Shown: one piece after another, positions 4,128-42,785 of the stretch
How the letters are laid out: every line of letters begins with the position of its first letter
How positions within the stretch are numbered: the first letter of the stretch is position 1
IMG/VR virus record: IMGVR_UViG_3300046804_001245
Coordinates: 42,883-106,882 of that record
DNA length: 64,000 nucleotides
Strand: one strand, 5' to 3'
Source of the DNA: a virus
Position numbers and translations under genes: made by a program
Notes under the pieces: generated by a model
Database searches by the model: none
Told to the model about the DNA's origin: nothing
The model's input: the letters and a program-made list of their open reading frames with translations, nothing else

Positions 4128-4361
4128 ATGTTAAACCTAAATTTACAAGGTGTTGAAATCTTCATAAAAAAAGCGCAGACAGAAAAAATAAATACTTTCT
4201 GGGAAAATTATGATCTTTTAATATGGAATAAAAATATCAACGGATATACAAGCAAAAACGGCATGTTTCGAAAGAATACATGGGGGACGGCAGAAAGAAT
4301 AGCCGTCAACAATAATGGTATATGGAAGCTTCCTATAAAGTATGTCAAATATTTTAAATGA
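4128..4361 (+). CDS. Hypothetical protein
   Basis: 77-aa ORF after the promoter; overlaps whiB. Confidence 0.65.
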   Translation: MLNLNLQGVEIFIKKAQTEKINTFWENYDLLIWNKNINGYTSKNGMFRKNTWGTAERIAVNNNGIWKLPIKYVKYFK

Positions 4362-4653
4362 TTTAGGTGTAGATACAGACGATTTTGACTGGTGGCATCT
4401 AGCAGTATGTCGTGGAATGGATACAAATCTATTCTATGATAAGTATGAAGTAGACGCCAACATAGCAAAAAATATAGACGACGCATGCTTGTCATGCCCA
4501 GTACTTAAAATGTGCTATGAATCAGGCATAGAAAAAGCAGAGTATGGAGTATGGGGTGGCGTCTATATGTCATCAGGAGAAATAGATAAATCTAAGAATC
4601 TCCACAAAACTCCAGAAATTTGGAAGAAACTAAGGAGTAAAGGTGTCGCTTAG
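4342..4653 (+). CDS. whiB: WhiB-family Fe-S transcription factor
   Basis: Four Cys (AVCRG, CLSCPV, MCY) and the YGVWGG turn motif. Confidence 0.9.
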   Translation: MSNILNDLGVDTDDFDWWHLAVCRGMDTNLFYDKYEVDANIAKNIDDACLSCPVLKMCYESGIEKAEYGVWGGVYMSSGEIDKSKNLHKTPEIWKKLRSKGVA

Positions 4654-14441: not shown

Positions 14442-14588
14442 TTAGTTCTTTGCTTGCTTGGTCTCAGCAGAAAACTTTACGCCATTCTTTTCCGCCTCTG
14501 ACAGGGCCTGCTTAGCTGCAGCTGAGAAACGGCCACGGCGGCCAACAGTAATTCCCTTGCTTGCTAGATATTCACGCTTTGTTGTCAT
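14442..14588 (-). CDS. Stand-alone Lsr2-like DNA-binding domain, 48 aa (not in ORF track)
   Basis: MTTKREYLASKGITVGRRGRFSAAAKQALSEAEKNGVKFSAETKQAKN; the RE...G..V..RGR pattern matches the Lsr2 C-terminal AT-hook-like domain; GAAAGGA RBS. Confidence 0.7.
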   Translation of the reverse strand: MTTKREYLASKGITVGRRGRFSAAAKQALSEAEKNGVKFSAETKQAKN

Positions 14589-16116: not shown

Positions 16117-16889
16117 TATGCTTTCTCCATTCTATATTCAGGTACGTGGTCGGAATCCAAGTATACTTTATGGGTCTGACATTCTTTGACATTATCTAGG
16201 TCTGCCTCCCCAAGCCAATTACAAGCAGAGCAGATTTCTCCACAATCATTATCGCAATATTCCATTGTATTATCTGAATCACAATCACGACATTTGTTCT
16301 CATACTCTGAGATAGATATAACTTCTCCACGAAGTAATTCCATTTCTCCGCCCCAACCTGTTTCTTCCTCATAAGATAGAGTTAGCAATAAACTAGGATA
16401 TTGTGCAGATAATTTTTGGAGGGCAGGAACAGGAGGAGACCAAGCAGTATTAAAGTTATAATAAACTACTAAGTTCTCTCCATTTTCAGTAGGCCCTTCC
16501 ATATATGTATCTGAATATTCTTTATTATCAGATATAGCCACATCCCATTTTGTTCCCCAATTAGTTATATTCCATGAATACCAAGACTTATCTTCTAATC
16601 TAAGTTTTTCAGTATCATTCCACCAATTAGGGTCAGATACATCTAATTCAGAACGAGTTGGTTGTGCAACATATTCTAAATCAGTTATACCTGCTTGGCG
16701 GTGGTTATAGATATTATAAAAAGCAAAGACAGGATTAGGATATGTAGTCTGAGATACTTCCATATTTCCAGTAGTTTTATTCCATGAATCATGTAACATG
16801 ACGAATGGTTTATTCATTTGTTTTACAAGGTCATTTACCAATTCAGGAGAACCTTCAATTGTAAGACCGTTATAGCACCAATTTGGCAT
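16116..16889 (-). CDS. DUF1281/YubB ferredoxin-like domain protein
   Basis: MPNWCYN..., WYSWNITNWGTKWD, FNTAWSPP and YEE motifs; start moved to follow the CGAAAGGAA RBS. Confidence 0.75.
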   Translation of the reverse strand: MPNWCYNGLTIEGSPELVNDLVKQMNKPFVMLHDSWNKTTGNMEVSQTTYPNPVFAFYNIYNHRQAGITDLEYVAQPTRSELDVSDPNWWNDTEKLRLEDKSWYSWNITNWGTKWDVAISDNKEYSDTYMEGPTENGENLVVYYNFNTAWSPPVPALQKLSAQYPSLLLTLSYEEETGWGGEMELLRGEVISISEYENKCRDCDSDNTMEYCDNDCGEICSACNWLGEADLDNVKECQTHKVYLDSDHVPEYRMEKA

Positions 16890-17020
16890 TATATATTCCT
16901 TTCGTTCGGTTGAATGGTCCAATTATACAATGCCCCACCGACATTTGACAATATCCCCCAAGTTTCGGGAAATTACATTAGATCTCGTAACAGAGCTATA
17001 TGGTCCTCAGGCATGCGGGC

Positions 17021-17165
17021 AAAAGCAAATCCCCCAGGAACCAACTGGGGGATATTGACACGTAGGGCTGCTAGTCAAACGAAAGGAATTAAGTAAACAC
17101 TGCTTTACTTAGCGACTTGGGGAATCCCTATAGCCGCACCCTACATTTAAATGGGCCTAAGCCGT
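17021..17165 (-). ncRNA. Candidate ~145-nt structured small RNA with anti-RBS segment
   Basis: TATAAT at 17172-17177; helices GTAGGG/CCCTAC and TAAGTAAA/TTTACTTA; 3' terminator ATCCCCCAG/CTGGGGGAT-TTGCTTTT; no convincing ORF. Confidence 0.6.
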
Positions 17166-17172
17166 AGATTAA

Positions 17173-17577
17173 TTATACCAGAAGAGGGACGTCGGTATAT
17201 TTCTCTACGAATGTGCGTAGGTCCATTACGAAGAGGGGCTCATTGCTCATACCACGAACCTTGTTGTCCAAGTTATAGAATGAATCCTCTGTATGAAGAC
17301 TAAAAGTCATTTGTGTAAAGTCGACGATAGCAATCTTGTGCTCGTTATCGCCAATCTCATTTACATGCAGGCCCCATCCAGTCTCCATAGACCAACCGTC
17401 GCCAATCATATGACTGATTGCGATACGTGTTGCATATGAAGGGTCCGACCAACGAGGCTGTGCTTTTGCAACCGCCTCTGCTAAATTGGCAAGCATGTTG
17501 TGGCCCGCCCAGTGTCCATACAGTACAATTGTGTTACCGTTCGGCTGTACAAATCCGAAGTTTGCTCTGTCACCCAT
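17173..17577 (-). CDS. Hypothetical phage protein
   Basis: MGDRANF...LYGHWAG; RBS present. Confidence 0.75.
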   Translation of the reverse strand: MGDRANFGFVQPNGNTIVLYGHWAGHNMLANLAEAVAKAQPRWSDPSYATRIAISHMIGDGWSMETGWGLHVNEIGDNEHKIAIVDFTQMTFSLHTEDSFYNLDNKVRGMSNEPLFVMDLRTFVEKYTDVPLLV

Positions 17578-18135
17578 TTATTTCTTCCTTTTCTATTATT
17601 GGTGTTTCTTCTTTACGGTCTAATTCTATAATTTCATAGGCCCACTTGTCAAGGGTCTCTGAATATTTATTTCGGTGGTGGCCACAGAAATACAATTCGC
17701 CATTAGTTCCTCTAGATAGGAATAAGGCTTGAGCTGAGCATGAATCGCATTTAATCCACTCAGAGGTCATTGTTTAATGTACCAAATTCGATTTTGTCTG
17801 CTATATCGTCCATGATTTGGCCTTCCTCGCCTAAAATAGCATCGGCTGCCCATTGACGAATATTGTTAATAATTACTTCACGAGTAAATTTAACACCATC
17901 TTCAAAACCATCTTTGTAGTCCATGTTACCTCCTGTAGCCTGTTGGCTGGTAATCTGTCTCCACTAGTATATCCAATTTATACTTAGATATCAAGGCTGA
18001 AACTTTTTCAATATTTCCCGTCCCAATATCAAATACAGTTGAATCTATCCAATATGGATCTAATCCAGCGAATTCAGCGTCCCAATATGCCGCTTTGAGG
18101 GCGGCAGTATTAGGAGCACGTAGTTGATAATACAT
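17570..18135 (-). CDS. Three small genes (17570-17770 CxxC...CxHH; 17760-17924 not in track; 17926-18135)
   Basis: Coupled - strand ORFs. Confidence 0.65.
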
Positions 18136-18689
18136 TAGTTCCAGTCCTGACTATCAACTAAATCAATATCCCATGAATCTACTTCGGTAGTAAAATCATT
18201 TGAGTCGACTGAAAGATTGTCAGAGAGATGATAACGAATATCAAAGTCATTAACTTCGGTAATATCTACCTCAGTACTTCCTGATACTGTAAGAGTTACA
18301 GTCCAGTTCATTGTTTGTTTTGGCTCATGGTCAAGGATTACACAAAGGTCACGAAGAACCTCTTCCTTGTCGACTGTATCTGAGAACCAACTATCAATAG
18401 TTAAATTATCGATAATCTGACCGATTTGTTTTTCTTGTGATTCAAGACGGGCATCACGATATTGTGCTTTTCTAAACATCTCGCTGATGTCTGCACGATT
18501 TAGAGTCCATTCTCTAAGTTCGCCATTTGGCAAGTGTTCATATGCTTTGATTGTTGGATTAGCGAAGAGCAAATCCTCCAATTCAGTTGCTTTATATAGT
18601 TTATAGATACTGTCATTTGATTCTGGCTGAATTTCACGAACAGTAGTTAATGCATGAGGATTATATGAATCCTGCGATACTATTTCCAT
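18135..18689 (-). CDS. Hypothetical protein
   Basis: Start MEIVSQ follows the AACGAAAGGAA RBS and the promoter at 18717-18738; the longer track start overlaps the tRNA. Confidence 0.7.
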   Translation of the reverse strand: MEIVSQDSYNPHALTTVREIQPESNDSIYKLYKATELEDLLFANPTIKAYEHLPNGELREWTLNRADISEMFRKAQYRDARLESQEKQIGQIIDNLTIDSWFSDTVDKEEVLRDLCVILDHEPKQTMNWTVTLTVSGSTEVDITEVNDFDIRYHLSDNLSVDSNDFTTEVDSWDIDLVDSQDWN

Positions 18690-18804
18690 TTGTTTCCTTT
18701 CGTTGTTATTGACCGTATTATAGCGGACCTGACTGACAAAATCCAGGGGTCCCGCCCCTTTGTCGTAACAATCTTTTTTGGATTTCACGTATGCGGGCGA
18801 GCTG

Positions 18805-18879
18805 CGACCCATACCAGATTTGAACTGGTGATCTCCACCGTGACAAGGTGGCGCTTTAACCATGCTAAGCCAATGGGCC
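18805..18879 (-). tRNA. tRNA-Asp (GTC), CCA not encoded
   Basis: Acceptor GGCCCAT/ATGGGTC-G; anticodon arm CCACC-TTGTCAC-GGTGG; T arm ACCAG-TTCAAAT-CTGGT. Confidence 0.9.
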
Positions 18880-18885
18880 AATAGG

Positions 18886-18903
18886 GGGCCCCTTGCGGGG
18901 CCC
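18886..18903 (-). terminator. GC hairpin between the DUF932 gene and the tRNA
   Basis: GGGCCCC-TTGC-GGGGCCC; may be a processing signal or terminator. Confidence 0.5.
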
Positions 18904-18911
18904 GTCATTCT

Positions 18912-19922
18912 TTAGAATGATTTTACAACCTGAAGAATTTTATTCTTCTCGGCGGTAATAATTGGGTCAAAACCAGAAGCAGAAGCCCACTTTGATTCTG
19001 AATTACTCTTGCGAGTAGGACGGAAATAATCAAGGCGTTCAGTAAGCGCATTGAAAGCGCCCCATTTTGTTCCCTTGATATTAGCATTGGTCGGAGAGTT
19101 ATGGTAAAGGTCATTTAGCAAAACAACCTTGTTATCCCATTTTGTCTTAGCCAATTTAGAATCAGATTCGGCAGGCTTAGGATAAATTGTTTTTACAATA
19201 TCCTGAAATTGCTTATCTGTAATTTCAGCAGCGAATAGAGATTGAGCCTCTTTTTCAAAAGCGTCGAAATAGCCAAGAGTAAGACCAAGAGTCTCACGAG
19301 CAATTTGAATCTTACCTTCCGCCGTTTGAGTGTGGCGAATCTTGAAAGATTGCTTTGATTGCTTCATCGCTAGGTTTAGCGTATTTTGGCATACGACACG
19401 AACAGGTGTAATCGCTGCCTGAACAGCAACAGAGCCGTCGTGTGATGTCCATACGATAAGATAAAGTTTAGTTTTATCGTTAGCACCTTTAGGGTCTAGC
19501 ACCATTTCACGGGGAACAGTAAGAGAACCGAATACAACTTTGCCATTCTTTAGAGAACCAGCAGATTCCCAAGCGCAGCGAGAATCGCCGTCTAGGATAT
19601 TGTCAGCGAATGAAAATAGTTCTTCATTCTGAACAACTTTATATCTAGCACCGACAGTTGAGAGAACATCTGTTCCGCCATTGAATGGGTTAGTTCTAGT
19701 CACGAGTTGTGAATTAGAAGAATCATTCCAAGATTCTGGAATGAAATCAGATACAGGTGAAAGCGAAACATTCCAATTAGAAAGTTTAGCCTCATCTAAC
19801 ATCATTTGAGTTGAAACAGATTCATCTTGTGCGAAGATTCTGTTTGCGAGATTGTGCCAAGCGGGAGTTCCACGCAAGGCGAAAGCGACTTCGTCGCCAT
19901 TTATTTCTAGGTTATGAGCCAT
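18912..19922 (-). CDS. DUF932 family (TIGR03299 phage/plasmid-like) protein
   Basis: AWH, Y.VVQN, ESAGSL, SHDGS, TPVRVVCQNTL, IRHT and GTKWGAFNALTE motifs. Confidence 0.85.
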   Translation of the reverse strand: MAHNLEINGDEVAFALRGTPAWHNLANRIFAQDESVSTQMMLDEAKLSNWNVSLSPVSDFIPESWNDSSNSQLVTRTNPFNGGTDVLSTVGARYKVVQNEELFSFADNILDGDSRCAWESAGSLKNGKVVFGSLTVPREMVLDPKGANDKTKLYLIVWTSHDGSVAVQAAITPVRVVCQNTLNLAMKQSKQSFKIRHTQTAEGKIQIARETLGLTLGYFDAFEKEAQSLFAAEITDKQFQDIVKTIYPKPAESDSKLAKTKWDNKVVLLNDLYHNSPTNANIKGTKWGAFNALTERLDYFRPTRKSNSESKWASASGFDPIITAEKNKILQVVKSF

Positions 19923-20216
19923 AGATTTATCCTTTCGATAGTTGATTAGTTCCTGAATTATACACTACGCTGCCGACATTGTAAATAGTTAGTTCCAATA
20001 TAGGGCAAATCGGACACCCTGTGAGAAAGCTCACAGGATCCAGGGGTATTTTAGACTTGACGTAACGGGGCTTCGCCCCCCACAGTTGTGCGGGCCTTCA
20101 GCTCATGTACTCGTTGATCACATCCAGCGCATTACACAATTGGCAGAAACATTCGCCATGGTCCATAACATCTTCCCAAATTAATTGCTGCAATTCGTGC
20201 ACCGCATATGGACCGC

Positions 20217-20936
20217 TCATTTTTTACTCGCAGAAAATCTTATGTCTGCTTTATTAAATACGCAGAGCCCACACGATACACAGGCTGAACCGTTAGTAGA
20301 TATTAGCGGAATTCGTTTAGCATTTTCAGGACACTTTGCGCCTACTTTGCCAGTTAATTCTTTCATGACAGTTTCTGCCACCGCAAAATTCTTAGCGAGA
20401 TACGCAAGGCGTGTGCCGTGATTAGTACGCAATTCTTTAGCAGTATCTTTATTTTCATCATCCGTCGAATAGTAAAGAGATAGATTAGCAATTCCCTTTA
20501 GAATTACGGCGGCGGAAGCGACACGGGTATAGACCCAAAATTGAACATCAGGGTGTTTCTCAATAACATTCTTCCACGCATAGGCATATGTCTCATTAAA
20601 GAAATCTCCGTCCCAGTGGATACGGAATAATTTATCGGCATTTTTCTTATCACAGTCCGCCTTGAATTCTACAATCATTTCATCTAGAAGAGAGACCATT
20701 GTTTCGATATTGGCATTGCGTATCAATTCCCAATTATGGAGCAGTACGGCTTTAACGCCTTTATACACCTTTTCTAATTTACCAGCATAGCAGACACTTT
20801 CGCAGATACTAGTTGCGCCAGGACATGAATAGGCCTTACCAGCAGGCAGGCCAAAAGTATTAGCAATCGTAGGTGTCTTCCCGTTAGGGCTAACGGCGTT
20901 AGCCACTTTTCGGTCATTAGAGCGTTTCAATTTCAT
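20217..20936 (-). CDS. Gp88-like (radical-SAM-related) protein
   Basis: FGLPAG..SCPGAT..C..VCYA, FRIHWDGDFF, WVYTR and C-terminal CP...C..C..C; leaderless start 7 nt after the -10 at 20944-20949. Confidence 0.75.
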   Translation of the reverse strand: MKLKRSNDRKVANAVSPNGKTPTIANTFGLPAGKAYSCPGATSICESVCYAGKLEKVYKGVKAVLLHNWELIRNANIETMVSLLDEMIVEFKADCDKKNADKLFRIHWDGDFFNETYAYAWKNVIEKHPDVQFWVYTRVASAAVILKGIANLSLYYSTDDENKDTAKELRTNHGTRLAYLAKNFAVAETVMKELTGKVGAKCPENAKRIPLISTNGSACVSCGLCVFNKADIRFSASKK

Positions 20937-20949
20937 ATGGGTAATTCTA

Positions 20950-21306
20950 TCACCACATACCGACAGCGAATTCGGCAACAGTATCTAGACATTCGGCGCA
21001 TGCCCAATCATCGCCATAGACTTCGTATTCTGCCTCATCGACAAAATAGGTGGCAGTACCACAGATTTCATAGTATAAACAATTTACTTTTATCATTTAG
21101 TTTCCCTTTCGTTATGCGGATATTATAACAGATTAGACTGACAATTTATCTTCGACACGCCACCTTGCGACATATTTTTCTAGGTCTGCTAGGTTATCAT
21201 CTGTGAGATAGGTGGAGATTACGCCAAAAGAATATGCGTATTCGTTATAGCCTTTTTCTTTTGCGTAGGCTAGGAGGTCATTTAGAATATCGTTTCTGTC
21301 TTTCAT
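20950..21306 (-). CDS. Two tiny genes (20950-21096 Cys-containing; 21133-21306), not in track
   Basis: Each has its own TGTCRG-N10-TATAAT promoter and GAAAGG RBS. Confidence 0.65.
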
Positions 21307-21525
21307 TTATTTTCCTTTCGATATGCCGACATTATAAACTAAACCGCCGACATTTTCCATTCCAGCTTGGGCGTGTCGCAAATTATTTTTGTGGGGAATC
21401 TCACAAAATCCAGGGGTATTTTTAAGTTGACGTAACAAGCTCGGCGCCCCCACTCTTTTGCGGGCCATTTTGGGAAGATGGGGCGGGGATCTAGATGATT
21501 ACACAGTTCAAACCCGCCCCAAGCT

Positions 21526-21783
21526 TTATGCTAAACCAATTTCTACTTTAGTTAGTTTAGTTGGCTTATATTTAGTTACTGTTTCCATTGGTAGAAACAG
21601 AGCCACAGTTTTTCTTTTCTTTAGTTTATCATAAACAAAAGCACGAACATTTCCAGAAAATTGGTTTAGATTAGAAAAAACTAATTCTGTTAGGTGTTCT
21701 TTATCTACTCCGTCATCTGAGAAAAGAGTCAAATCATTTTGTTTTACGTCATCATATATTTCGATACGATACCGATTACGCAT
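21526..21783 (-). CDS. Hypothetical protein
   Basis: 85-aa ORF with RBS. Confidence 0.65.
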   Translation of the reverse strand: MRNRYRIEIYDDVKQNDLTLFSDDGVDKEHLTELVFSNLNQFSGNVRAFVYDKLKKRKTVALFLPMETVTKYKPTKLTKVEIGLA

Positions 21784-21908
21784 TTTATTTCTTTCTGTTA
21801 GTAGGGATTTTAGTTGAGCAGTTTAGCCTTGACTTGCTCAGGTCAGGTATCTTTTCCGTTAGGAGAAGTTTAGCATGGGGGACTAGATTTTGTCTAGCCC
21901 CCAATTTG

Positions 21909-22331
21909 CTATAAGTATTTAGCGATAGAGTTGTAAGTAGATGTGGAAACTGTTTCCTCATCTGTCATCTTGAGAATACGGATAGCGTTCTCAATTTCCT
22001 CTACCATTTCCTTATATTGCCAATCATGGAAAGACTCAAAGTCTTTCTGCGGTTCAGTAGGAAGCGTGATAGTTCCTGCTGGTAATTCAAAAGAAACATA
22101 GATTTTGCCATTGTATCTGACATTGGCAGACAGTTCATCTGCCTTAGCAATTTTTTCAAGTGCTAACTTAGCAACTTCCTTGTTGTATTTCTCTTGTGCC
22201 TTTGAGAACTTTTCCTCATTGACTTTTTGATTAGCCTTATCCTTTTGGAGTTGAGCCAATTTATTTTCAAGTGCCTTGATTACTTTGGTTGTAGCAATCT
22301 TGACATTTATGGATTTACCATTTCTAGCCAT
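21909..22331 (-). CDS. Hypothetical coiled-coil protein
   Basis: Promoter 22362-22383, AACGAAAGGAA RBS, downstream hairpin 21877-21902. Confidence 0.75.
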   Translation of the reverse strand: MARNGKSINVKIATTKVIKALENKLAQLQKDKANQKVNEEKFSKAQEKYNKEVAKLALEKIAKADELSANVRYNGKIYVSFELPAGTITLPTEPQKDFESFHDWQYKEMVEEIENAIRILKMTDEETVSTSTYNSIAKYL

Positions 22332-22404
22332 TTTATTTCCTTTCGTTAGTTATGAGCAAGAATTATAGCAGGGGATACTGACATTGTATCCCCCACCTAT
22401 TTAG

Positions 22405-23439
22405 TTATTTAGCAGGTGCGCTAGTCCAGCGTTCCTTGCCATTGACATCAAGCAGAATACGATTTACACCTGAAGGGTGATTATCTACTGCTTTGATAAC
22501 GCCTGTCACGCCACTATTAGTGGTTGTGTAGGTCTGTCCGATTTCCAGAGTTGCCATTTATTTTCCTTTCGTTGTTGTGGAAGGCTATCCTAGCATAGCC
22601 CACCGACATTTTAGAGCCACGCCTCTAGGTGGTGTTGTTCTACGATAGCCCAAGCGGGTGCGGTATTGAAACCTTTATAAGTTATGCCTTCGGGCATTGG
22701 TATCTCACGATCAGTTTCGCCTTCGTTGTAAGCCTCAATAGCCTCAATACACGGCAATACCATAGATTTAGGAACGGGCGGGTAATGATTAGAAGTTAGG
22801 TGAATACCAATAGCGGTAGATAAGTCTAATTCGCCATTGGCTAATTCTGTTGCGAAGGTGCTACCCATTTAGCACCTCGTTTCTCATTGTTTCAATTTCG
22901 TCAATAGTAGCGATTAGGTCTTTTACTTGGCTTTCAGTTAGTAATACTTTAGTAGCCTTATCTACTGCGGTGCTTGCTAGCATAGAAGCATAGACGAACA
23001 AGGCTTTGGCTATTTGTTCATCATCTAATTCTTTGTAAGAGTGTGTAATAAATTGAGCGAAGCCCATAGCCTCGTCATCAAAAATAGTTTCTTCAGTTGC
23101 CTGAATAAGAGCGGTTGCGGTTGCTATCATTTATTTATTTCCTTTTCGTTTAGTGGTGGGTAGATTATACACCTACCCACCGACAATTTAGGCAAGGGCT
23201 AAAATAGCCTGCGTTGCACCTAGATTTACGGCATCTAATTCTGCCTGTAATTCCTCGGTTGTCATTTTAGTAGGGTCGCCTACTAATTCGGAGATAGCGT
23301 CACGATTAATCATCTCTACCATTTCGGTAGGCATGCGTGAGATTTGTGGATAGAAAGAGCCATTAGTATCTAGTTTAGATACAAAATTAACTCCATTAAC
23401 GGAGAACGGGAACGAAGCCCAGTTATCTGTGTTTAGCAT
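22405..23439 (-). CDS. Small hypothetical genes (22405-22557 not in track; 22611-22868; 22861-23130; 23188-23439)
   Basis: ORFs preceded by the repeated promoter and RBS. Confidence 0.7.
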
Positions 23440-23725
23440 TTTTTCCTTTCGTTTGTTTGATTAGCGCAATTATAGCGTAGGCTACTGACAAATTAGTTTT
23501 ATTCTGCCCGCCAGCTTTGTGATAAACATCACAAAAATCCAGGGGTTTTAAACTTGACTCGTAACAGGAGTTTGCCCCACTCTCCTTTGCGGGCGATTTG
23601 TTGAAAGTTCAACCAATTTAGTTGATTATTCAACAAAACGTTTTTTATGTTTTGATTTTCTTTTGTAAATTTTTTTAGACGGAATTGGTTGCGCCGCATT
23701 ACTACGGCGCAATTCCAAAACTTTT

Positions 23726-24848
23726 TTAATTCGTGGTAAATTTTGGAACACGATAATTGCTCGCTTCGTAGAATTTATTCGCATCAAATCTAGGATTATC
23801 TTTTGCGAACATCAACGCAAAATCAACAACCATTTTAGAAAAAATAGCGGGGTGAGTTTTATCTGAAACATACCGCAGAATTTCTGCGGTAGCGACATAG
23901 TCTTTACGAGTCATCACGATTTTACTCCGTCACACTCAACAACATCAAAAACATCAAATTTTGCCAAGTCTGAGTCTGGCAATTGAAATAGAATTTTGTT
24001 TAGCGCAAAAACCGCTTGTAAATCGGTTTCTGCTTCGGTAACAAAACTAATCAAGACATTTTTTTTCATTAGTCATTCTCCTTATCAAATAGAGAGCCGT
24101 CATAGTGAGATGTTGGATTACAGTCACAAGGCTCAATGTTGTAATCCTCAGCACCGCCATAGAAAAGCCAACCTTTTCCGTAGCAGGTATCGCAGTCAAA
24201 AGCGAGAGTATGAATTGTTTTCATTTTTAGTTTTCCTTTCGTGTTGTTTCGGTAATTGTAGCATTAGCCACCGACAAAATTGCCGATAGATTAGAATTGC
24301 GTTTTTCTTTTACTTCCGCTAAACGCTGGGCGATAATGAATTCTCTAAATTCTTTTAGATCCATTTTAGTTTTCCTTTCGTTTTGTTATTGGTTGAATTA
24401 TAGCGTGGGGGTCTGACATTTTCCCTAGTTAGGGAGAATGTCTGGACCATAATAAGCAACGGCGGAAACGATGTTCATCATTCCCTTATATTCATTACAG
24501 GATACGCATACGCTATTCCAGCGGTCATAAGTTTTTGAGCAGAATACGCAGATGTTATCCTGAAGGCTAAAGCCTAGATTTTCAATTTCTCTAAGTGTAG
24601 TCATTTAGTTTTCCTTTCGTAGTAAATCAGATTATAGCGGAAGCCACCGACATTTAGTCGGCAACTTTCACGGCGACAGTCGCCCATTTATTTCCGTTGA
24701 AACGGATAGCGTAGGCTTCATAGCCGTCAAGCCAAATATCCTCACGCTTTTCTGCGAAAGTAATTTCGCCGAATTGGTATTTTCTCGCAATAGAGCGAGG
24801 GTAATAAGTCTGACCTACAAGAAGGTCGGGAATTGAATAAGTTTTCAT
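23726..24848 (-). CDS. Small hypothetical genes (23726-23917, ~23914-24069, ~24070-24224, ~24429-24604, 24654-24848)
   Basis: Read manually downstream of the repeated promoter/RBS units; several are Cys-rich. Confidence 0.6.
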
Positions 24849-25267
24849 TTAGTTTTCCTTTCATTTTGTTACTCCGTGAGTTTATCAAATTGGACTGACA
24901 TTTTCAAATCGAAAATCGGTATAAATCGGACATTGTGATAATCATCACAAAAATAAATTAAAATAAATTTGACTGGTCAAACTTTTTTCGGGCGTGTCGC
25001 AGGATTTCGGGAAATCGGACATAATGGACTTAAAGGATAAATCGCCCGCACAACTGTGCGGGTTGCCGCAGCTTTTGTCAAGCCGACACGCCGTTAGGTT
25101 AGTGTGAGATACGCCACAAGAAACCCTAGCCCTATACAGAGCGACAACAGGGCGGCGGCATGGAGTAGGTGTATCATTTAGCACACCTCTCACATGGTTC
25201 TATTGTATATTCATGACGATCACCTACATAGATGACCTTTCTACCATAGCACATAGAGCATTTCATT

Positions 25268-26102
25268 TTAGACCGCCTCTTCCAATTCTGCCAAAGCCTC
25301 ATCTTCTAATTCTAGCATTTCATCTAGAGAGATTTCAATAGGGTTTATTTCTTCTTCATCATAGTATTCAACCTCATAGCCGTGTTGAATACTTTCATAT
25401 TTGTATGAGTTATCTGTTCTATCAAACGAATACATTTATTTATTCTCCTTTACTTTCTGTTCTTCCAAATCTTATACGCTACCACTGACACGATAGCAAT
25501 TCCAATTCCTAGCCATGATGCGTAGAAATCAAATTGAGCGGTTTCGAAGGCAATTCCCTCAGAGCCTAGTTCTATTAGTAAGTATCTATCCATTTTGTTT
25601 ATCTTCTTTCTCTATCTTGTATGCTGTAAGCATATCCTATGCTGCTGACAATTTCAGGGGTCAGACCCTATATTTTGTGTGAGTTACCTCACACTCTCTA
25701 TAACCTCATAACCTAATTGGTTTAGGTCATAGACCCAATACTCTGTATCACAGCATAGGGCGGTGATAGTGGTATCCTCAATATCGCTAGTGATATTGGA
25801 CAATTCATCGGAGAATTCTCCACACTCATCACAGGTGAAATTCTTTACTGTATATTCATATTTTAGTGACATATTCTTATGTCCTTTCTTTCTAATACTG
25901 ATAATCTACCAGGTGCCGCCGACAATTACAAGGGGTCGGACCCTGTGTTGCTTGTGAATTATCTCACAAGATTTAGATTTTCATCGAAGGTGAGAACCTG
26001 TCTAACCTTGTATGTCTTATCTATTGGACAAATCATGTTCCAACCTTCAGGGTCTACATGTCCGCAAGTTGGGCAAATTGGGTGAAATTTTTCGTATGTC
26101 AT
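25268..26102 (-). CDS. First island genes: tiny acidic, TM and Zn-finger proteins (~25268-25435, ~25450-25592, 25684-25872, one starting ~26102)
   Basis: Each follows a TGTCRG-N10-TAnnnT promoter. Confidence 0.55.
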
Positions 26103-26360
26103 TTTCTGACCTACCTTTCTTTTTTTCTAATACTAAAATAATAACAGGGGGGTCTGACATTTTCAAGGGGACAAATGTCTCAATTCGGACATTTGTGATG
26201 TCAATCACACGATTATCCTGTGATATAGACCACATATGGGCGCAGTATTAGGACAAATCGGACATTGTAAAACTGTGCATCATACAAAATAAAAATATAT
26301 TAACATTTTTAGAAATCTAAAATTATAGTCAACTAGAATAATAAATGCTATACTGGCTAC

Positions 26361-26537
26361 ATGGATAAAGTAGAAGATACAAGCTGCTACAGCTATAAGG
26401 TCGAAATGATCGTACAAGTTTTTGCGGAAAATGAAGAAACCGCCAGAATGCAATTAGATGATAAAGGCGGATATGTCACAACCCGCAAAGTAAAATTGAT
26501 GGACTCAGTACCTTTATACAATGGAGTAAAAAAGTAG
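26361..26537 (+). CDS. Hypothetical 58-aa protein (not in track)
   Basis: MDKVEDTSCYSYKVEMIVQVFAENEETAR...; leaderless after TGCTATACT. Confidence 0.6.
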   Translation: MDKVEDTSCYSYKVEMIVQVFAENEETARMQLDDKGGYVTTRKVKLMDSVPLYNGVKK

Positions 26538-35745: not shown

Positions 35746-38547
35746 ATGGCAGTTAGAATTCAGCTTCGTAGAGATACCGCCGCAAATTGGGTTTCTTCAA
35801 ATCCAACACTGCGGGCGGGAGAAATTGGTATTGAAACAGATACCCTTAAATTTAAAGTAGGTACAGGTTCCACACCATGGAATTCAATTACTGCATATGC
35901 AAACGTAGTACCAGCAGACCTAAATACAACCCTAAATGGATATTTAGAAGTTGGCGATTTGAGCAATACTGTGGCGGAAATTGTAGATGGAGCAGTCTAT
36001 GTTCCAGGTACAGATATAGTATTTGAAGGAACTGCAAATGCTCATGAATTAACTCTTACTGCCCCAGATGTAACATCAGATAAAACAATTACATTGCCAG
36101 ACGCTACAACCACTCTTGTAGGAACTGATGTTGCTCAAACTTTAACTAATAAGACTCTTACATCCCCCGTCGTTTCTGGTCTAAGCCTGTCTGATTCAAG
36201 CATCGTATTTGAAGGTGCAGTAGCAGACTCATATGAGACCACATTGACGGTCGGGGAACCAACAGCAGATCGCACAATTACTCTTCCAGATGTTACTGGT
36301 ACAGTAGTTACAACAGGCGACACAGGTTCTGTAACAAATGCAATGTTAGCAGGATCAATTGCTAATGATAAATTAGCTGGATCTATCTCTAATGATAAAC
36401 TAGCTGGATCAATATCAAATGATAAACTTTCAAATTCATCAATTACAATTAACGGAACTGCAACATCTCTTGGTGGAACAAGAACTCTTGGTTCAGATGA
36501 TATTTCAGAAGGTTCTACAAATAAATATTTTACAGATGAACGTGCACAAGACGCTGTAGCGGCAGCAATAGCAGCAGGAACTCATACAAACGTAACAATT
36601 ACTTATGATGATAATGCTAATACTCTAAGCTTTACAGGTGCAGTAACGTATACAGATGAAAATGCTCAGGATGCCGTCGGAAATGCCGTTGGAAACGGTC
36701 TAGACTATGACGATAATACTGGAGCAATTTCTGTAGATCCATCAGAATTTGCCCTAAGCGCAGTTGGTGCGCCTACTGGCAATATTGATCTCGGTACATA
36801 TAAAATTACAAATTTAGGAACTCCAACATCATCGGCAGATGCTGCAACTAAGGCTTATGTAGATAATACTACTGCTGGACTTAACTTTCATGCCGCCGTT
36901 CATGCAGCAACAACTGCAAATCTAGATGCAACATATGCAAATGGTACAGGCGGAGTAGGTGCAACTCTTACTGCAAATGCTAATGGAGCCTTATCATTAG
37001 ATGGGCACACACTTTCAGCAGATGAGCGAGTTCTTGTTAAGAATCAAACGACTGGATCTCAAAACGGTATTTATGTAGTAACAGCCACAGGAGATGGATC
37101 AAATCCATATATCCTAACTCGTGCTACAGATGCTGATAATTCACCAGCAGGTGAAGTAGCATACGGAGATTTCTGCTTTGTACAAAATGGCGGGCAGGCA
37201 GGATATGGATTTATTGTAAATACAACTGGTTCAATTACAATTGGAACAACCGCAATTTCATATGTTCAGTTTAATGCTGGTCAGGTTGTAGTTGCTGGAA
37301 ATGGTCTAACCGAAACAACCCCAGGAACCCTGGCAATTAATACAGCAGTTACTGTTGACCTAAATACAGCACAAACTCTGACCAATAAAACAATTACAGG
37401 ATCATTCACAGGTAATTTAACTGGAAATGCAGATACTGCAACAAATGGAGTAGTTACAACTGGATCTTATTCAAATCCTTCGTGGATAACTAGCCTTGGA
37501 TGGTCTAAAATATCATCTACTCCAACTACAATTTCAGGATATGGAATTACAAATGCAGTTGTAACAGATGCAGCAAATACTATTACTGCCGCTTCTGCTT
37601 CAACAAAACCATTAATTATTAAAGCAGCAGCATCTCAATCTGCCAATCTTCAAGAGTGGCAGAATAGTAGTGGAACTGTAATGGCAACAATAGATTCCAA
37701 TGGAAATCTAAAAACAGAATATCTTTTAGATAAAGCAAATGGTGGAAGTTATATTCAACTTCAATCAAATAATGCAGTATTGTTGTCTACACGCTCATCA
37801 ACAAATAAGGGTTTACTTGTTCAAGGTGTTGCTTCACAATCAGCTAGCCTTCAAGAATGGCAAAATTCAAGCGGAACAGTATTAGCTAAAGTTGATCCTT
37901 CAGGTAATTTAACAGCAGCATCTATAGTTAAATCTGGAGGAACTTCAAGTCAATATTTAATGGCAGATGGTTCTACAAATTCAACTGTAGCAACAACATC
38001 TGGTGGAACTGGATTAACCTCATATGCAACTGGAGATATCCTTTACGCCTCCGCCACAAATACATTAAGCAAACTTTCGGCAGGAACAGACGGATATCTA
38101 CTAACACTATCATCTGGTGCTCCTACATGGGCAGCAGCACCAATTAGCTTGCCAGCTCAAAGCGGGTCTACCGTAGGCAAGTATTTACAGTCAGATGGGA
38201 CAAGCGCTTCTTGGCAAACTCTAGTAGTTCCAATTGAAACAGGTACTGCTACTCTAACTGCAAATACTGCAACAACTATTAGCACTACCGCCCTTTCAGC
38301 ATTCACCTCAATTGAATATATGGTATCGCTAAAGCAGGGATCAAAGGTCAGAACATCTAAGGTAGTAATGCAGACTGACGGAACTTCTGTTGATATGACA
38401 GAATTTGCAATTACAGAAACTGGCGGAACAATGTCAGGAGTAGTAGTTTCAGCAACAACAGCATCAACAAATGGAGTTTTACAGGTAACTGTAACAGATG
38501 CATCAAGCACAAACGTAGATGTAAAATTCAGCAAAGTAAAGTTGTAG
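35746..38547 (+). CDS. Tail fibre with Mtd/hyaluronidase-type N-terminal domain
   Basis: IQLRRDTAANW...GEIGIETDTLKFKVG; two ASQ.A.LQEWQNSSG repeats. Confidence 0.8.
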   Translation: MAVRIQLRRDTAANWVSSNPTLRAGEIGIETDTLKFKVGTGSTPWNSITAYANVVPADLNTTLNGYLEVGDLSNTVAEIVDGAVYVPGTDIVFEGTANAHELTLTAPDVTSDKTITLPDATTTLVGTDVAQTLTNKTLTSPVVSGLSLSDSSIVFEGAVADSYETTLTVGEPTADRTITLPDVTGTVVTTGDTGSVTNAMLAGSIANDKLAGSISNDKLAGSISNDKLSNSSITINGTATSLGGTRTLGSDDISEGSTNKYFTDERAQDAVAAAIAAGTHTNVTITYDDNANTLSFTGAVTYTDENAQDAVGNAVGNGLDYDDNTGAISVDPSEFALSAVGAPTGNIDLGTYKITNLGTPTSSADAATKAYVDNTTAGLNFHAAVHAATTANLDATYANGTGGVGATLTANANGALSLDGHTLSADERVLVKNQTTGSQNGIYVVTATGDGSNPYILTRATDADNSPAGEVAYGDFCFVQNGGQAGYGFIVNTTGSITIGTTAISYVQFNAGQVVVAGNGLTETTPGTLAINTAVTVDLNTAQTLTNKTITGSFTGNLTGNADTATNGVVTTGSYSNPSWITSLGWSKISSTPTTISGYGITNAVVTDAANTITAASASTKPLIIKAAASQSANLQEWQNSSGTVMATIDSNGNLKTEYLLDKANGGSYIQLQSNNAVLLSTRSSTNKGLLVQGVASQSASLQEWQNSSGTVLAKVDPSGNLTAASIVKSGGTSSQYLMADGSTNSTVATTSGGTGLTSYATGDILYASATNTLSKLSAGTDGYLLTLSSGAPTWAAAPISLPAQSGSTVGKYLQSDGTSASWQTLVVPIETGTATLTANTATTISTTALSAFTSIEYMVSLKQGSKVRTSKVVMQTDGTSVDMTEFAITETGGTMSGVVVSATTASTNGVLQVTVTDASSTNVDVKFSKVKL

Positions 38548-39710: not shown

Positions 39711-41450
39711 ATGGCAGCAACACCAGCATTGTTTTATAGAGGGGCGGCAGCAACAAGTTCTGCAACTCTTTACACCTCCCCAAATACTGCAGGAGCAAAG
39801 GCGGTATTAACAGACATAGTAATATCAAATACGTCTTCAAGTCAACAATATGTTACAATGACAGTAGATGGTATTAATATTCTGCCTACCGTCCCAGTTT
39901 CTGCAAATACAGTAATTAATTTACAGCCAAAAACAGTTATGGGACAAAATAAAATATTAGCAGGATATGCTAGTAGTACAGATGTTAAATTTCATATATC
40001 AGGAGTTGAGATTGCATGATAGATCAGTATCCATCGGCTAATGGCGTATTAACAAGTCTTATTTGGCGGAAGACAATGAGCGGCGGAGAAACAAGTCTTT
40101 CAGGATATGATAATGCATCACAAGCTCTTTCATATACTCCAGGGCAGGAACAAGTATATCTCAATGGTATTCTTCTAGTTCGTGGAGATGACTATACAGC
40201 TACAAATGGTACATCAATTACAGGCTTAACCGCATTGTCCGCCTCGGACTTTGTTCAAGTAAATTGCTATAATAATTTTAGCGTAGCTACGCTACCTACA
40301 TCTGGACTAACTGGCACAATTTCAAATGCACAATTACAGAATTCAAGTATTACTATAAATGGATCTGCGGTATCTCTAGGTGGATCAGTTTCCCTTCCTG
40401 GAGATATTGAGAGCGTTACAGCCTCATCTCCTTTAACAGGCGGCGGATCAAGTGGAGCGGTAACAATAGGAATTCAATCTGCTTCTACAACTCAATCAGG
40501 AGCAGTTCAATTAACAGATTCAACATCTTCAACTTCCACATCAACTGCAGCTACTCCAAATTCAGTTAAATCGGCATATGATTTAGCAAATGGAGCAATT
40601 CAAAAAACTTTAACTACTACTACTGGAGATATTATATATGCATCATCTGCAAATACTCCAGCTAGACTTGGAATTGGATCAAGCGGACAAGTATTGTCTG
40701 TGTCAGCAGGTATTCCAAGTTGGCAAACAATTTCAACATCTCCCACATTCAAAGGGTGCGCTGTAAGGGCTTCAAATTCAATAAGTGCTTCTAATGACAC
40801 TTGGACATTTCCAGTCATGGATTTGGAAGATTTTGATACAGATAATTTTCATAGCACAACTGTTAATCCAACAAGAATCACAATTCCTTCAGGACTGGGT
40901 GGAAAGTATTTAGTTGTTGGACAACTTTTTTGGGACCAAAGTTCCAGTGGGGCAAGAAATACACAAATATACAAAAATGGTTCAGGTGTTGGTTGGGTTA
41001 ATTATGCACCAACCCCCACTTGGGGTGGTGGTGGTTCTTGGCCAAGCACACCAACCGTAAGAATTCTAAGTCTTGTTGCTGGTGATTATTTGGAACTTGC
41101 AGGTATGCAACAAAGTGGCGGAACACTAAACTTAAGCACATGGACATTTGCTGTCCAATATTTAGGAGCATAGAAAAATGATTAGATTTAACAAACCAGC
41201 AAACTTAAATGGCGCAGAACTAAAACAAGAATTAAAAGCGGCAGGGATAGTGTTCATTGACGAGGTGGATGGATTACATCTAAAAGGTGATGATTTATTC
41301 ATCAATATTTCTGAAAATGATACTGAATTAGCACTACCGATTGTCAATTCTCATAATGGAACAGTAATTGCACCAGAACCAACAGTTGCTGATAAACTAG
41401 CGGCAGCAGGATTAACAATAGAAGAATTAAAGGAAGCTTTAGGAATATAA
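39711..41450 (+). CDS. Three virion proteins (39711-40019, 40016-41173, 41178-41450)
   Basis: VQLTDS...AATPNSVK tail-fibre repeat; the small protein ending in KLAAAGLTIEEL resembles a fibre chaperone. Confidence 0.7.
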
Positions 41451-41459
41451 GGAGGTATT

Positions 41460-42785
41460 ATGAGCAAGGCTAGAGATCTTTCTAACCTTTTCTCCGCCTC
41501 CACAGATGTGGCGACGGATGCAGAAGTAAACTCTGCTATTGCTAATCATGCCTCTAGTACAACTAATAGACATTATAAGGCAGGCAACACTGCTTCCCGC
41601 CCCGCTTCTCCGAATATAGGAGATATATATTCAAATACAGAAACAGCATTTACAGAAGTATATTCTGGTTCGACATATGGGTGGGAACAAATTGGTGGAG
41701 TTGCCTCTACAGTAACTGGTGTCACTGCAACAAATCAAGGATCTAGTAGGGAATTTAATAATGGCCAAGCATCAGTATCTTTTACACCAGGTACAGTATT
41801 AGGTAGAACGTATACAGCTACTTCATCACCAGGATCATATACGAATACAGGTTCTTCGTCTCCAATTGTAGTCACAGGTCTACAATCATCTACTCAATAT
41901 ACTTATACTGTTACAGCTACAAATAATTATGGGACATCTTCTTCATCTTCTGCCTCTTCAGGTGTTACTGCAACAACTGTGCCACAGGCACCTACAATTG
42001 GTACGGCTACAGGAGCAGATCAATCCGCAACATTAACTTTTACGGCGGGAGCAACTGGCGGATCTTCAATAACTAACTATAAATATTCAACAGATAACAT
42101 AACATACACAGCATTTAGTCCTGCTCAAACATCTTCTCCATTAACTATATCTGGATTAACAAATGGACAAAACTATTCATTCTATTTAAAAGCAGTAAAT
42201 GCAAACGGAGATTCTGCAGCATCTGCAGCAAGTAATTCTATAACAGCAGCGCCACCTACTGCTTTTGAATCTATTGCTACAGTAACTATAGGTAATGATA
42301 ATCCGACAACTATTACCTTTAGTTCTATACCTAGCACGTTTACTCATCTACAAATTCGTGGCATCTCTCGTTGCGGAAGAACTGACGGAGAAGATAACTA
42401 CATACTACGGTTCAATAGTGATTCTGGTAATAACTATGCACATCATAAAGTATATGCAACTGGAAGTGCTGTTGCTTCAGCTGCTACTATATCAACATCT
42501 GGAATCAATTTAGATTCTTCTATTTCAAGTCCTTATATTGGTACAAATAATTTTGCCCCACTCATACTTGATATTTTAAATTATTCTAATACAAGCAAAT
42601 ATAAAACAGTCAGATATATGTCTGGTGTCGACTCTAACGGCGGAAATAGAGATAGAATCTTTTTTGCTTCTGGATTATGGCAAAGTACCAGTGCTATTAC
42701 TTCTATTACATTGTTAGCAGACGCAAGCCAGACATTATCACAATACACGACTTTAGCTCTTTATGGAATAAGGGCGGCCGCATAA
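41460..42785 (+). CDS. FN3-domain virion protein
   Basis: VTGLQSSTQYTYTVTATN FN3 motifs plus C-terminal ~170-aa repeated domain. Confidence 0.8.
   Translation: MSKARDLSNLFSASTDVATDAEVNSAIANHASSTTNRHYKAGNTASRPASPNIGDIYSNTETAFTEVYSGSTYGWEQIGGVASTVTGVTATNQGSSREFNNGQASVSFTPGTVLGRTYTATSSPGSYTNTGSSSPIVVTGLQSSTQYTYTVTATNNYGTSSSSSASSGVTATTVPQAPTIGTATGADQSATLTFTAGATGGSSITNYKYSTDNITYTAFSPAQTSSPLTISGLTNGQNYSFYLKAVNANGDSAASAASNSITAAPPTAFESIATVTIGNDNPTTITFSSIPSTFTHLQIRGISRCGRTDGEDNYILRFNSDSGNNYAHHKVYATGSAVASAATISTSGINLDSSISSPYIGTNNFAPLILDILNYSNTSKYKTVRYMSGVDSNGGNRDRIFFASGLWQSTSAITSITLLADASQTLSQYTTLALYGIRAAA

Follow-up and report, generated by a model that had tools for sequence, protein, structure and literature searches.

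Background

Class I activation by Escherichia coli CAP takes place from sites centred at -61.5, -71.5, -82.5 and -92.5, and it was worked out on sigma-70 promoters with a -35 element and not on promoters of the PafBC type. In class I promoters, where AR1 of CRP contacts the alpha C-terminal domain, a 16-bp palindrome lies upstream, and its permitted positions follow one another in steps of approximately 10.5 bp on one face of the helix. The actinobacterial Crp/GlxR regulons, represented by Rv3676 of Mycobacterium tuberculosis and GlxR of Corynebacterium glutamicum, use the palindrome TGTGA-N6-TCACA with an AT-rich centre and a dominant GTG/CAC core, and their cellular sites are scattered, with one or two at each promoter, most of them imperfect. 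Upstream positions comparable to those described below (-62.5, -69.5 and -96.5) have been found for M. tuberculosis Crp sites by ChIP-seq (PMC4117774).

Two further systems bear on the locus analysed here. The first is that of the PafBC-dependent promoters (RecA-NDp, sigma adaptation), and we know of no published model of these promoters that includes an upstream Crp site. Their consensus, which includes no -35 element, is tGTCgg(N10)tA(N3)T (PMC8635444). The second is phage T1, in which several phage promoters are likewise wired to host CRP, but in E. coli these promoters are repressed by it, the effect is linked to a lysis-lysogeny decision and no phased array is described (PMC6737242).

The palindromes and their promoters

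The window, by which we mean the whole 64-kb stretch of phage DNA that was analysed, contains nine 16-bp inverted repeats of the CRP/GlxR type, TGTGA-N6-TCACA, of which six are perfect and three carry one mismatch; a re-scan thus confirmed the count of nine sites in 6.2 kb given in the first-pass annotation. Shuffled sequence is expected to hold 0.13 perfect sites per 64 kb and none of 100 shuffles produced six or more, so that the enrichment over shuffled sequence, which that annotation had proposed as a check, is borne out. Beyond these nine, which all lie between 20020 and 26234, the entire 106,882-bp phage genome has no further site with one mismatch or none, and their density is therefore unmatched elsewhere in that genome, contrary to one of the refuting outcomes named in the first-pass annotation.

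The palindromes lie among approximately 18 copies of a single promoter type, each followed by a common ACGAAAGGAAA ribosome-binding leader and then a small gene. Seven of these promoters carry palindromes. In the list below, distances were computed with the first T of the -10 set as -12, and the transcription start sites are predicted ones; coordinates are those of the window.

16160 to 26159, minus strand throughout: promoter block, approximately 18 copies of TGTCRG-N10-TAnnnT (-26 box and -10)
20020 to 20035: perfect palindrome; promoter 19978-19957 (minus strand), centre -77.5; phase outlier, the orthologous sites in relatives being mostly at -74.5
21390 to 21405: palindrome with one mismatch (position 5, tolerated); promoter 21352-21331 (minus strand), centre -73.5; in phase
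23518 to 23533: perfect palindrome; promoter 23490-23469 (minus strand), centre -63.5; in phase
24934 to 24949: perfect palindrome; promoter 24900-24879 (minus strand), centre -69.5; minor off-phase class; TGTCCGATTT element 1 nt later
25103 to 25118: site with one mismatch; no promoter within 200 bp; may be chance or an orphan
25678 to 25693: perfect palindrome; promoter 25650-25629 (minus strand), centre -63.5; in phase; overlaps the stop codon of the upstream small gene
25953 to 25968: perfect palindrome; promoter 25924-25903 (minus strand), centre -64.5; in phase; overlaps the stop codon of the upstream small gene
26194 to 26209: perfect palindrome; rightmost promoter, 26159-26138 (minus strand), centre -70.5; off-phase class; TGTCCGA 2 nt downstream
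26219 to 26234: palindrome with one mismatch (position 12); promoter 26159-26138 (minus strand), centre -95.5; in phase; 25 bp upstream of the 26194 site

The block promoters fit the PafBC consensus exactly, spacing included. They have a TGTCRG -26 box, set 10 nt ahead of the -10, and lack a conserved -35 element; they are not class I promoters of the sigma-70 -35/-10 kind. They differ from known PafBC promoters in that TGTCAG is commoner than TGTCGG and in that the copies drive tiny phage genes and not repair genes. The coupling of palindromes to PafBC-type promoters that had been proposed for this DNA is upheld by the seven minus-strand promoters with palindromes upstream. In contrast to the cellular Crp/GlxR regulons, this phage and its near-complete relatives have five to nine mostly perfect sites in one gene block, tied to copies of one promoter type.

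Conservation in related phages

Related uncultured phage DNA contains 423 perfect sites in 1.55 Mb, distributed over more than 100 loci. The three near-complete relatives have all of their 5, 7 or 8 sites in a single block of 6-8 kb, and controls with the reversed pattern gave 0. No other inverted repeat upstream of the family's promoters comes close in frequency to TGTGA-N6-TCACA, which is present in 211 of 625 upstream regions, and only about half of the promoters across the phage family bear a site. The promoters are also found in more distant relatives, but there no palindromes go with them, so that the palindromes are not required for promoter function, and a search of the palindrome-free relatives for a replacement motif found none. 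Among deposited phages, near or distant DNA similarity consisted only of short matches to Streptomyces phages.

Helical phasing

Across the family the site centres form peaks at -54.5, -64.5, -74.5, -84.5/-85.5 and -95.5/-96.5, with a period of approximately 10.4 bp, and the same peaks are seen with one-mismatch sites. After de-replication of the sites by orthology to 81 (cluster, spacing) pairs, a Rayleigh test gave R = 0.40 (p approximately 3e-6) for periods of 10.2-10.5 bp, and within orthologous clusters the spacer jumps by approximately 10 or 20 bp. There is also a recurrent minor class at -69.5/-70.5, on the opposite face of the helix, which includes two of the seven window sites (24934 and 26194). 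Family-wide phasing at 10.4 bp is what marks class-I-like action from upstream, and it suggests that selection has confined the palindromes to a single helix face with respect to the promoter.

All seven promoter distances in the first-pass annotation (-63.5 to -77.5) proved exact on recomputation, but its description of them as class I activating distances holds only in part: the family data supply the 10.4-bp phasing, whereas the seven window distances alone fall on mixed faces, the phasing appearing only in the family, and the main phase, measured from predicted start sites, is some 3 bp out of register with the class I positions of E. coli. The phage promoters share with E. coli class I promoters the 16-bp palindrome, its upstream location and, across the family, a spacing in steps of a helical turn, and differ from them in the missing -35, the PafBC-type -26 box, the shift in phase and the minor opposite-face class at -70. 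A further difference is that the present case concerns a phage genome and an actinobacterial host.

The recognition profile

Among the 116 one-mismatch sites the mismatch falls at positions 5/12 in 76, at 1/16 in 28 and in the GTG/CAC cores in only 12, so that 104 have it at 1, 5, 12 or 16; where two mismatches are present they are compensatory in only two of 26 sites. The family sites have K6/M11 at the inner positions, T/A at positions 8-9 and an AT-rich centre, and the inner positions match those of the CRP/GlxR consensus (PMC10187061). This combination of a constrained core, tolerant flanks and an AT-rich centre is that of CRP/GlxR sites, and the original assignment of the boxes to that consensus is supported by half-site sequence, inner-position preferences and tolerated mismatches alike. 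Near-invariant GTG/CAC cores together with uncompensated changes at 1, 5, 12 and 16 point to a CRP-type dimer on DNA and not to an RNA stem.

Candidate readers of the sites

The host is very probably an actinobacterium, to judge from a WhiB protein, an Lsr2-like fragment, actinophage homologues and a domain in the tail-fibre region in common with a 'Ca. Planktophila' phage, which together back the actinobacterial setting assumed at the outset. Identification of the host through cellular genomes was rejected, the ribonucleotide reductase matches being phage contigs mis-binned into assorted freshwater MAGs. In the actinobacterial class cNMP-binding proteins were present in 147 of 151 sampled genomes, a tally that takes in the unpublished genomes G007, G015, G024, G030, G032, G036 and G043. 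One streamlined actinobacterial genome of 1.44 Mb encodes a 227-aa Crp that is orthologous to M. tuberculosis Rv3676 (E 6e-77) and identical to M. tuberculosis Crp in its recognition-helix segment, and four of five streamlined actinobacterial genomes have adjacent pairs of WYL genes (pafBC-like, approximately 310-344 aa). Host Crp is thus a plausible reader of the phage boxes.

It is unlikely, though it is the strongest of the alternatives, that the palindrome is read by a dimeric DNA-binding protein of the phage itself, from a family not recognised, which activates or times the promoters, the resemblance of the palindrome to the CRP consensus being convergent. The block is full of 40-90-aa proteins without a family match, and the palindrome layer is clade-specific and absent in distant relatives, which would suit a phage-borne factor that has been gained or lost. 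There is also a stand-alone 46-aa HTH protein (genome 36902-37042) with weak matches to Sigma70_r4 and HTH_Crp_2, but its presence does not follow palindrome abundance, and it was rejected as the binder as it occurs in palindrome-rich and palindrome-poor relatives alike. Against a phage-encoded reader stands the match to the CRP consensus in half-site, N6 spacing, inner preference and mismatch tolerance. Nor does the phage encode a recognisable regulator to fill the role: no recognisable match was found to a CRP, HTH_Crp_2, cNMP_binding, WYL, cyclase or sigma protein, and Pfam and PHROG scans of approximately 100 small phage proteins gave no HTH or sigma factor and no regulator beyond WhiB and the Lsr2-like fragment.

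Mode of action

The reading that we prefer, with a probability of about 0.6, is that the boxes are predicted operators for a dimeric regulator of the CRP family, most probably the Crp/GlxR of the actinobacterial host, serving as an upstream co-activator on a fixed face of the helix. The dimer would sit 50-100 bp upstream of -35-less promoters carrying the PafBC-type -26 box and would contact the promoter-bound complex in a class-I-like manner, either through the alpha C-terminal domain of RNA polymerase or through a factor at -26, and initiation might thereby be raised or conditionally tuned at the heads of the units transcribed within the leftward block of small genes. The identity of the binder, the activating direction and any dependence on cAMP are inferred; CRP-type palindromes on one helix face suggest that a cAMP-receptor-type regulator of the host may help to switch on this block of small phage genes. 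The interpretation in the first-pass annotation is supported in part: the CRP/GlxR boxes, their coupling to PafBC-type promoters and a very probable actinobacterial host stand, and the phasing in the family agrees with it, but the window distances are not on one face and a dependence on cAMP is overstated.

An extension of this reading, which we regard as possible but doubtful, is that in a widespread family of freshwater actinophages two borrowed host global regulators run the whole block, a PafBC-type ssDNA-sensing sigma adaptor at -26 and Crp on its fixed upstream face. The suggestion that such promoters form an 'AND gate' of host cAMP/energy status and DNA-damage status is speculative.

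Host Crp might instead bind between transcription units, often directly at an upstream stop codon, and act negatively or as an insulator, blocking read-through or holding the promoters off until it is displaced, and this we consider improbable. The sites are found where upstream genes end, two of them overlapping stop codons, and are unaccompanied by intrinsic terminators; GlxR and M. tuberculosis Crp both repress as well as activate (PMC10187061), and phage T1 promoters are repressed by host cAMP-CRP (PMC6737242). However, the phage sites are 50-100 bp upstream, clear of the -26 and -10 elements, and a roadblock needs no fixed helical phase to a downstream promoter.

Still less probable is the decoy array that had been offered as an alternative at the outset, in which perfect sites on replicating phage DNA would titrate host Crp and reprogramme host metabolism. 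Six perfect-consensus and presumably high-affinity sites per genome would be multiplied by the phage genome copy number, and most native M. tuberculosis Crp sites are imperfect (PMC4117774), but the phage sites are few per genome and confined to promoter-upstream positions, and a decoy would work without a spacing locked to the promoter and without 10.4-bp phasing. The decoy idea is speculative and leaves the promoter-locked phasing unexplained; titration of Crp could be only a side effect of the sites. Finally, the notion that the palindromes work as RNA hairpins in the leftward transcripts, with a part in processing, stability or termination, was rejected as scarcely credible. In its favour, every palindrome can fold into a 5-10 bp stem and they lie at gene 3' ends. 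The stems, however, show strict sequence conservation in place of covariation, a single mismatch is not made good by a second change, an RNA signal would not be expected to keep phase with a DNA element, folding z-scores of the surrounding module were -1.2 to +0.4, no U-tract follows the stems and no Rfam family was matched.

Implications for phage and host

If host Crp does read the boxes, Crp action from an upstream face of the helix would be combinable with sigma-adaptation (PafBC-type) promoters, and we know of no published model in which the two are combined. The abundant uncultured freshwater actinophages of approximately 100-117 kb, whose hosts are probably low-GC acI-type actinobacteria, would then control a gene block by means of host global regulators and not by factors of their own, and their promoters would provide a natural spacing series (-54 to -96 in 10-bp steps) for the activation geometry of actinobacterial RNA polymerase. 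Should the two-input reading be true, the timing of phage gene expression would be tied both to the appearance of ssDNA, whether from the phage's own replication or from damage, and to the nutritional state of the host, an architecture that is not described for any cellular PafBC regulon.

Promoters with and without palindromes

The possibility that the boxes compensate for weak promoters was rejected, as the -10 hexamers of boxed promoters are not weaker; their quality is identical with and without a palindrome. The -26 box of boxed promoters is modestly shifted away from TGTCGG(TGG) in a comparison that is uncorrected for phylogeny.

Palindromes and promoters in the window

The first-pass annotation had described nine TGTGA-N6-TCACA palindromes, six of them perfect, and a pattern search of the window bore this out: between 20020 and 26234 there are six perfect and three one-mismatch sites, against a shuffle expectation of 0.13 perfect sites per 64 kb, and the whole 107-kb genome holds no further site with one mismatch or fewer, so that both the enrichment and its restriction to this region are real. 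Very small genes on the minus strand make up the region, and in about 18 cases a TGTCRG-N10-TAnnnT element and a common ACGAAAGGAAA leader come before the gene; every copy is in minus-strand orientation and falls within 16160-26159. The proposal that these promoters are of PafBC type is also supported in sequence: they match the published consensus tGTCgg(N10)tA(N3)T, which comprises a -26 element and a -10 without a -35 (PMC8635444). Seven promoters of the block carry an upstream palindrome and, numbering the first T of the -10 as -12, the distances originally reported (-63.5 twice, -64.5, -69.5, -70.5, -73.5 and -77.5) proved exact. The two remaining sites are as follows.
26219, palindrome centred at -95.5 from the rightmost promoter
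25103, palindrome with no promoter nearby

Box-bearing promoters are no weaker in the -10 hexamer than those without, and their -26 box is somewhat farther from the PafBC consensus in a comparison that ignores phylogeny. Family promoters fall into two classes after the -26 box, TGTCAGACCCC... (e.g. window 24418-24397 and 26159-26138) versus TGTCRGTGG... (e.g. 23185-23164), the latter being nearer the mycobacterial PafBC motif; boxes are somewhat commoner on TGTCAG promoters.

Conservation and helical phasing among relatives

More than 100 loci of related uncultured phages, many from genomes of 100-117 kb, were retrieved with a composite DNA pattern and with the block's 253-aa protein. They contain 423 perfect palindromes in 1.55 Mb, co-occurring with the promoter motif. 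In three near-complete relatives all perfect sites (5, 8 and 7) lie inside a single 6-8 kb block each, and a reversed-pattern control gave zero sites; the promoters, too, are restricted to one strand of one block. TGTGA-N6-TCACA was the dominant inverted repeat upstream of the promoters, present in 211 of the 625 regions; the promoters are also kept in more distant relatives, yet there neither the palindrome nor a substitute motif was found.

When the loci were oriented by their promoters and the contexts de-replicated (n = 272), palindrome centres peaked at -54.5, -64.5/-63.5 (n = 66), -74.5/-73.5 (n = 53), -84.5/-85.5 (n = 38) and -95.5/-96.5, with a secondary group at -69.5/-70.5 (n = 28), and one-mismatch sites gave peaks identical to those of perfect sites. 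Because orthologous spacers inherit the same spacing by descent, contexts were clustered by downstream sequence and each spacing was counted once per cluster; the resulting 81 values retained a period of 10.2-10.5 bp (Rayleigh R = 0.40, p ~3e-6), with no signal at 8 or 13 bp. Within clusters the spacing shifts by about 10 or 20 bp (e.g. -63.5/-73.5, -54.5/-74.5, -64.5/-74.5/-84.5/-95.5). Such phasing is the signature of a DNA-bound protein obliged to face the promoter complex. It is invisible in the window alone and needs the family data, against which five window sites are in phase (23518, 25678, 25953, 21390 and 26219), two belong to the -70 class (24934 and 26194) and 20020, at -77.5, is an outlier whose orthologues lie mostly at -74.5.

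Nature of the palindromes

An inverted repeat in a transcribed region might be an RNA stem, but this reading is rejected. The half-site sequence itself is conserved beyond mere pairing: among 116 distinct one-mismatch promoter-upstream sites, positions 5/12 vary in 76, 1/16 in 28 and the GTG/CAC cores in only 12, and compensatory changes account for just two of 26 double mismatches. No U-tract follows the stems, no Rfam family was matched and the module surrounding the palindromes has no significant fold. The inner positions show a preference for K at 6, M at 11 and T/A at 8-9, and this, with the conserved core, agrees with the CRP/GlxR consensus first suggested and with what is known of contacts made to the two G bases of TGTGA (PMC10187061). 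That the boxes are DNA sites bound by a protein, with a functional link to the promoters, is very probable.

The phage, its probable host and candidate binders

The record is one 106,882-bp virus genome with direct terminal repeats, rated complete (38.6% G+C; the window is its bases 42883-106882). Its gene content marks it as a tailed phage, very probably of an actinobacterium, with protein homologues mainly from Mycobacterium, Streptomyces, Microbacterium, Arthrobacter and Gordonia phages. The features that bear on the host are listed here.
4342-4650 (+), WhiB-family protein, an actinobacterial signature
14445-14588 (-), Lsr2-like N-terminal fragment, 48 aa, an actinobacterial signature
40016-41173 (+), tail-fibre-repeat protein
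41460-42785 (+), FN3-domain protein, 441 aa, adjoining the tail-fibre-repeat protein

Over its C-terminal 170 residues the FN3-domain protein has 42% identity with a protein from the cultured 'Ca. Planktophila' phages E7 and F5 (OX376640/41); the record OX376640.1, labelled LanE43-AprE7, is the phage E7 of PMC10202952. This common domain may be a shared receptor-binding domain and so a host clue, which would hint at, rather than prove, a low-GC freshwater acI-type actinobacterium. Close relatives also turn up inside freshwater MAGs. Contigs whose phage ribonucleotide reductase is 58-90% identical (L126-L140) carry MAG labels that include Saccharibacteria, Bacteroidia, Brevundimonas and cyanobacterium, and are almost certainly phage contigs mis-binned in freshwater metagenomes.

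No HTH_Crp_2, cNMP-binding, WYL, class III cyclase or sigma protein was found in the phage genome, and when about 100 small or medium phage proteins were scanned with Pfam and PHROG, WhiB was the sole regulator. One stand-alone protein has weak Sigma70_r4 and HTH_Crp_2 matches.
Genome 36902-37042 (+), upstream of the window (locus L001:1447-1587), HTH protein, 46 aa
Its gene has a RuvC-like gene on one side and a glycosyltransferase gene on the other, and five near-complete relatives conserve it. As the protein occurs in palindrome-rich and palindrome-poor relatives alike, it gains no support as the palindrome binder.

On the side of the candidate hosts, 147 of the 151 genomes sampled from the actinobacterial class encode cNMP-binding proteins, a tally that includes seven flagged as unpublished (G007, G015, G024, G030, G032, G036 and G043). 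In one 1.44-Mb genome (G140) the protein, of 227 aa, is orthologous to M. tuberculosis Crp (E 6e-77) and has the same recognition segment, GASRETVNKALADFA. Of five such small genomes, four also have WYL genes side by side in pairs, like pafB-pafC. Both readers would therefore be available in a host of this type.

Proposed mode of action

We consider it somewhat probable (about 0.6) that the boxes are bound by host Crp/GlxR, which would work from an upstream position, much as at class I promoters, on the PafBC-type promoters at transcription-unit heads. The direction of the effect is judged from position only, and simple repression is argued against since the boxes overlap neither the -26 nor the -10 elements. 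The DNA-damage AND gate of the first-pass annotation is speculative, and the alternative that the array is a decoy leaves the phasing unexplained. Judging by the title of Stapleton et al. 2010, actinobacterial Crp reportedly binds cAMP and DNA in ways that depart from the E. coli paradigm, which makes the cAMP dependence of box action, as a matter of prior expectation, doubtful.

Four known systems come closest. In the actinobacterial Crp/GlxR regulons, ChIP-seq places M. tuberculosis Crp at -62.5, -69.5 and -96.5 relative to start sites that have been mapped (PMC4117774). In phage T1, host cAMP-CRP represses the phage promoters (PMC6737242). The class I CRP promoters of E. coli share the palindrome and, as far as the period goes, the phase dependence, but they differ in core promoter and the phage phase, counted from predicted start sites, is offset by 3 bp. 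The published model of PafBC promoters, unlike the phage promoters, has no upstream Crp site. A literature search found no account of phased CRP boxes on phage or PafBC-type promoters.

Other recurring elements

Two further elements recur near the palindromes, and a tRNA gene lies within the block.
20036-20100, 21406-21470, 23534-23599, also 18745-18790 and ~16960-17010 (-), GCCCGCA-N22-GTTACG module
18804-18879 (-), tRNA-Asp (GTC), ARAGORN, Rfam 63 bits
20010-20016, 24926-24932, 25015-25021, 26185-26191, 26258-26264 (-), (A)TGTCCGA(TTT)

The conserved module, followed by CCCCTGGAT, comes just before three palindromes in the direction of transcription. A copy also lies 3' of the tRNA, again with CCCCTGGAT, where a promoter box takes the place of the palindrome. 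Since the module's RNA fold is not significant (z -1.2 to +0.4), it probably works as DNA, as an element for some other factor. Across the family the starts of (A)TGTCCGA(TTT) cluster at -61/-60/-59 in 43 contexts and at -51 in 13, measured from the promoters, and thus are also ~10-bp periodic; at the off-phase (-70) sites the element is directly 3' of the palindrome.

The rightmost control region (26194-26360) appears to head the leftward block. Its two palindromes, in tandem at a distance of 25 bp, adjoin a divergent AT-rich stretch in which the gene that begins at 26361 has a sigma-70-like promoter on the plus strand.
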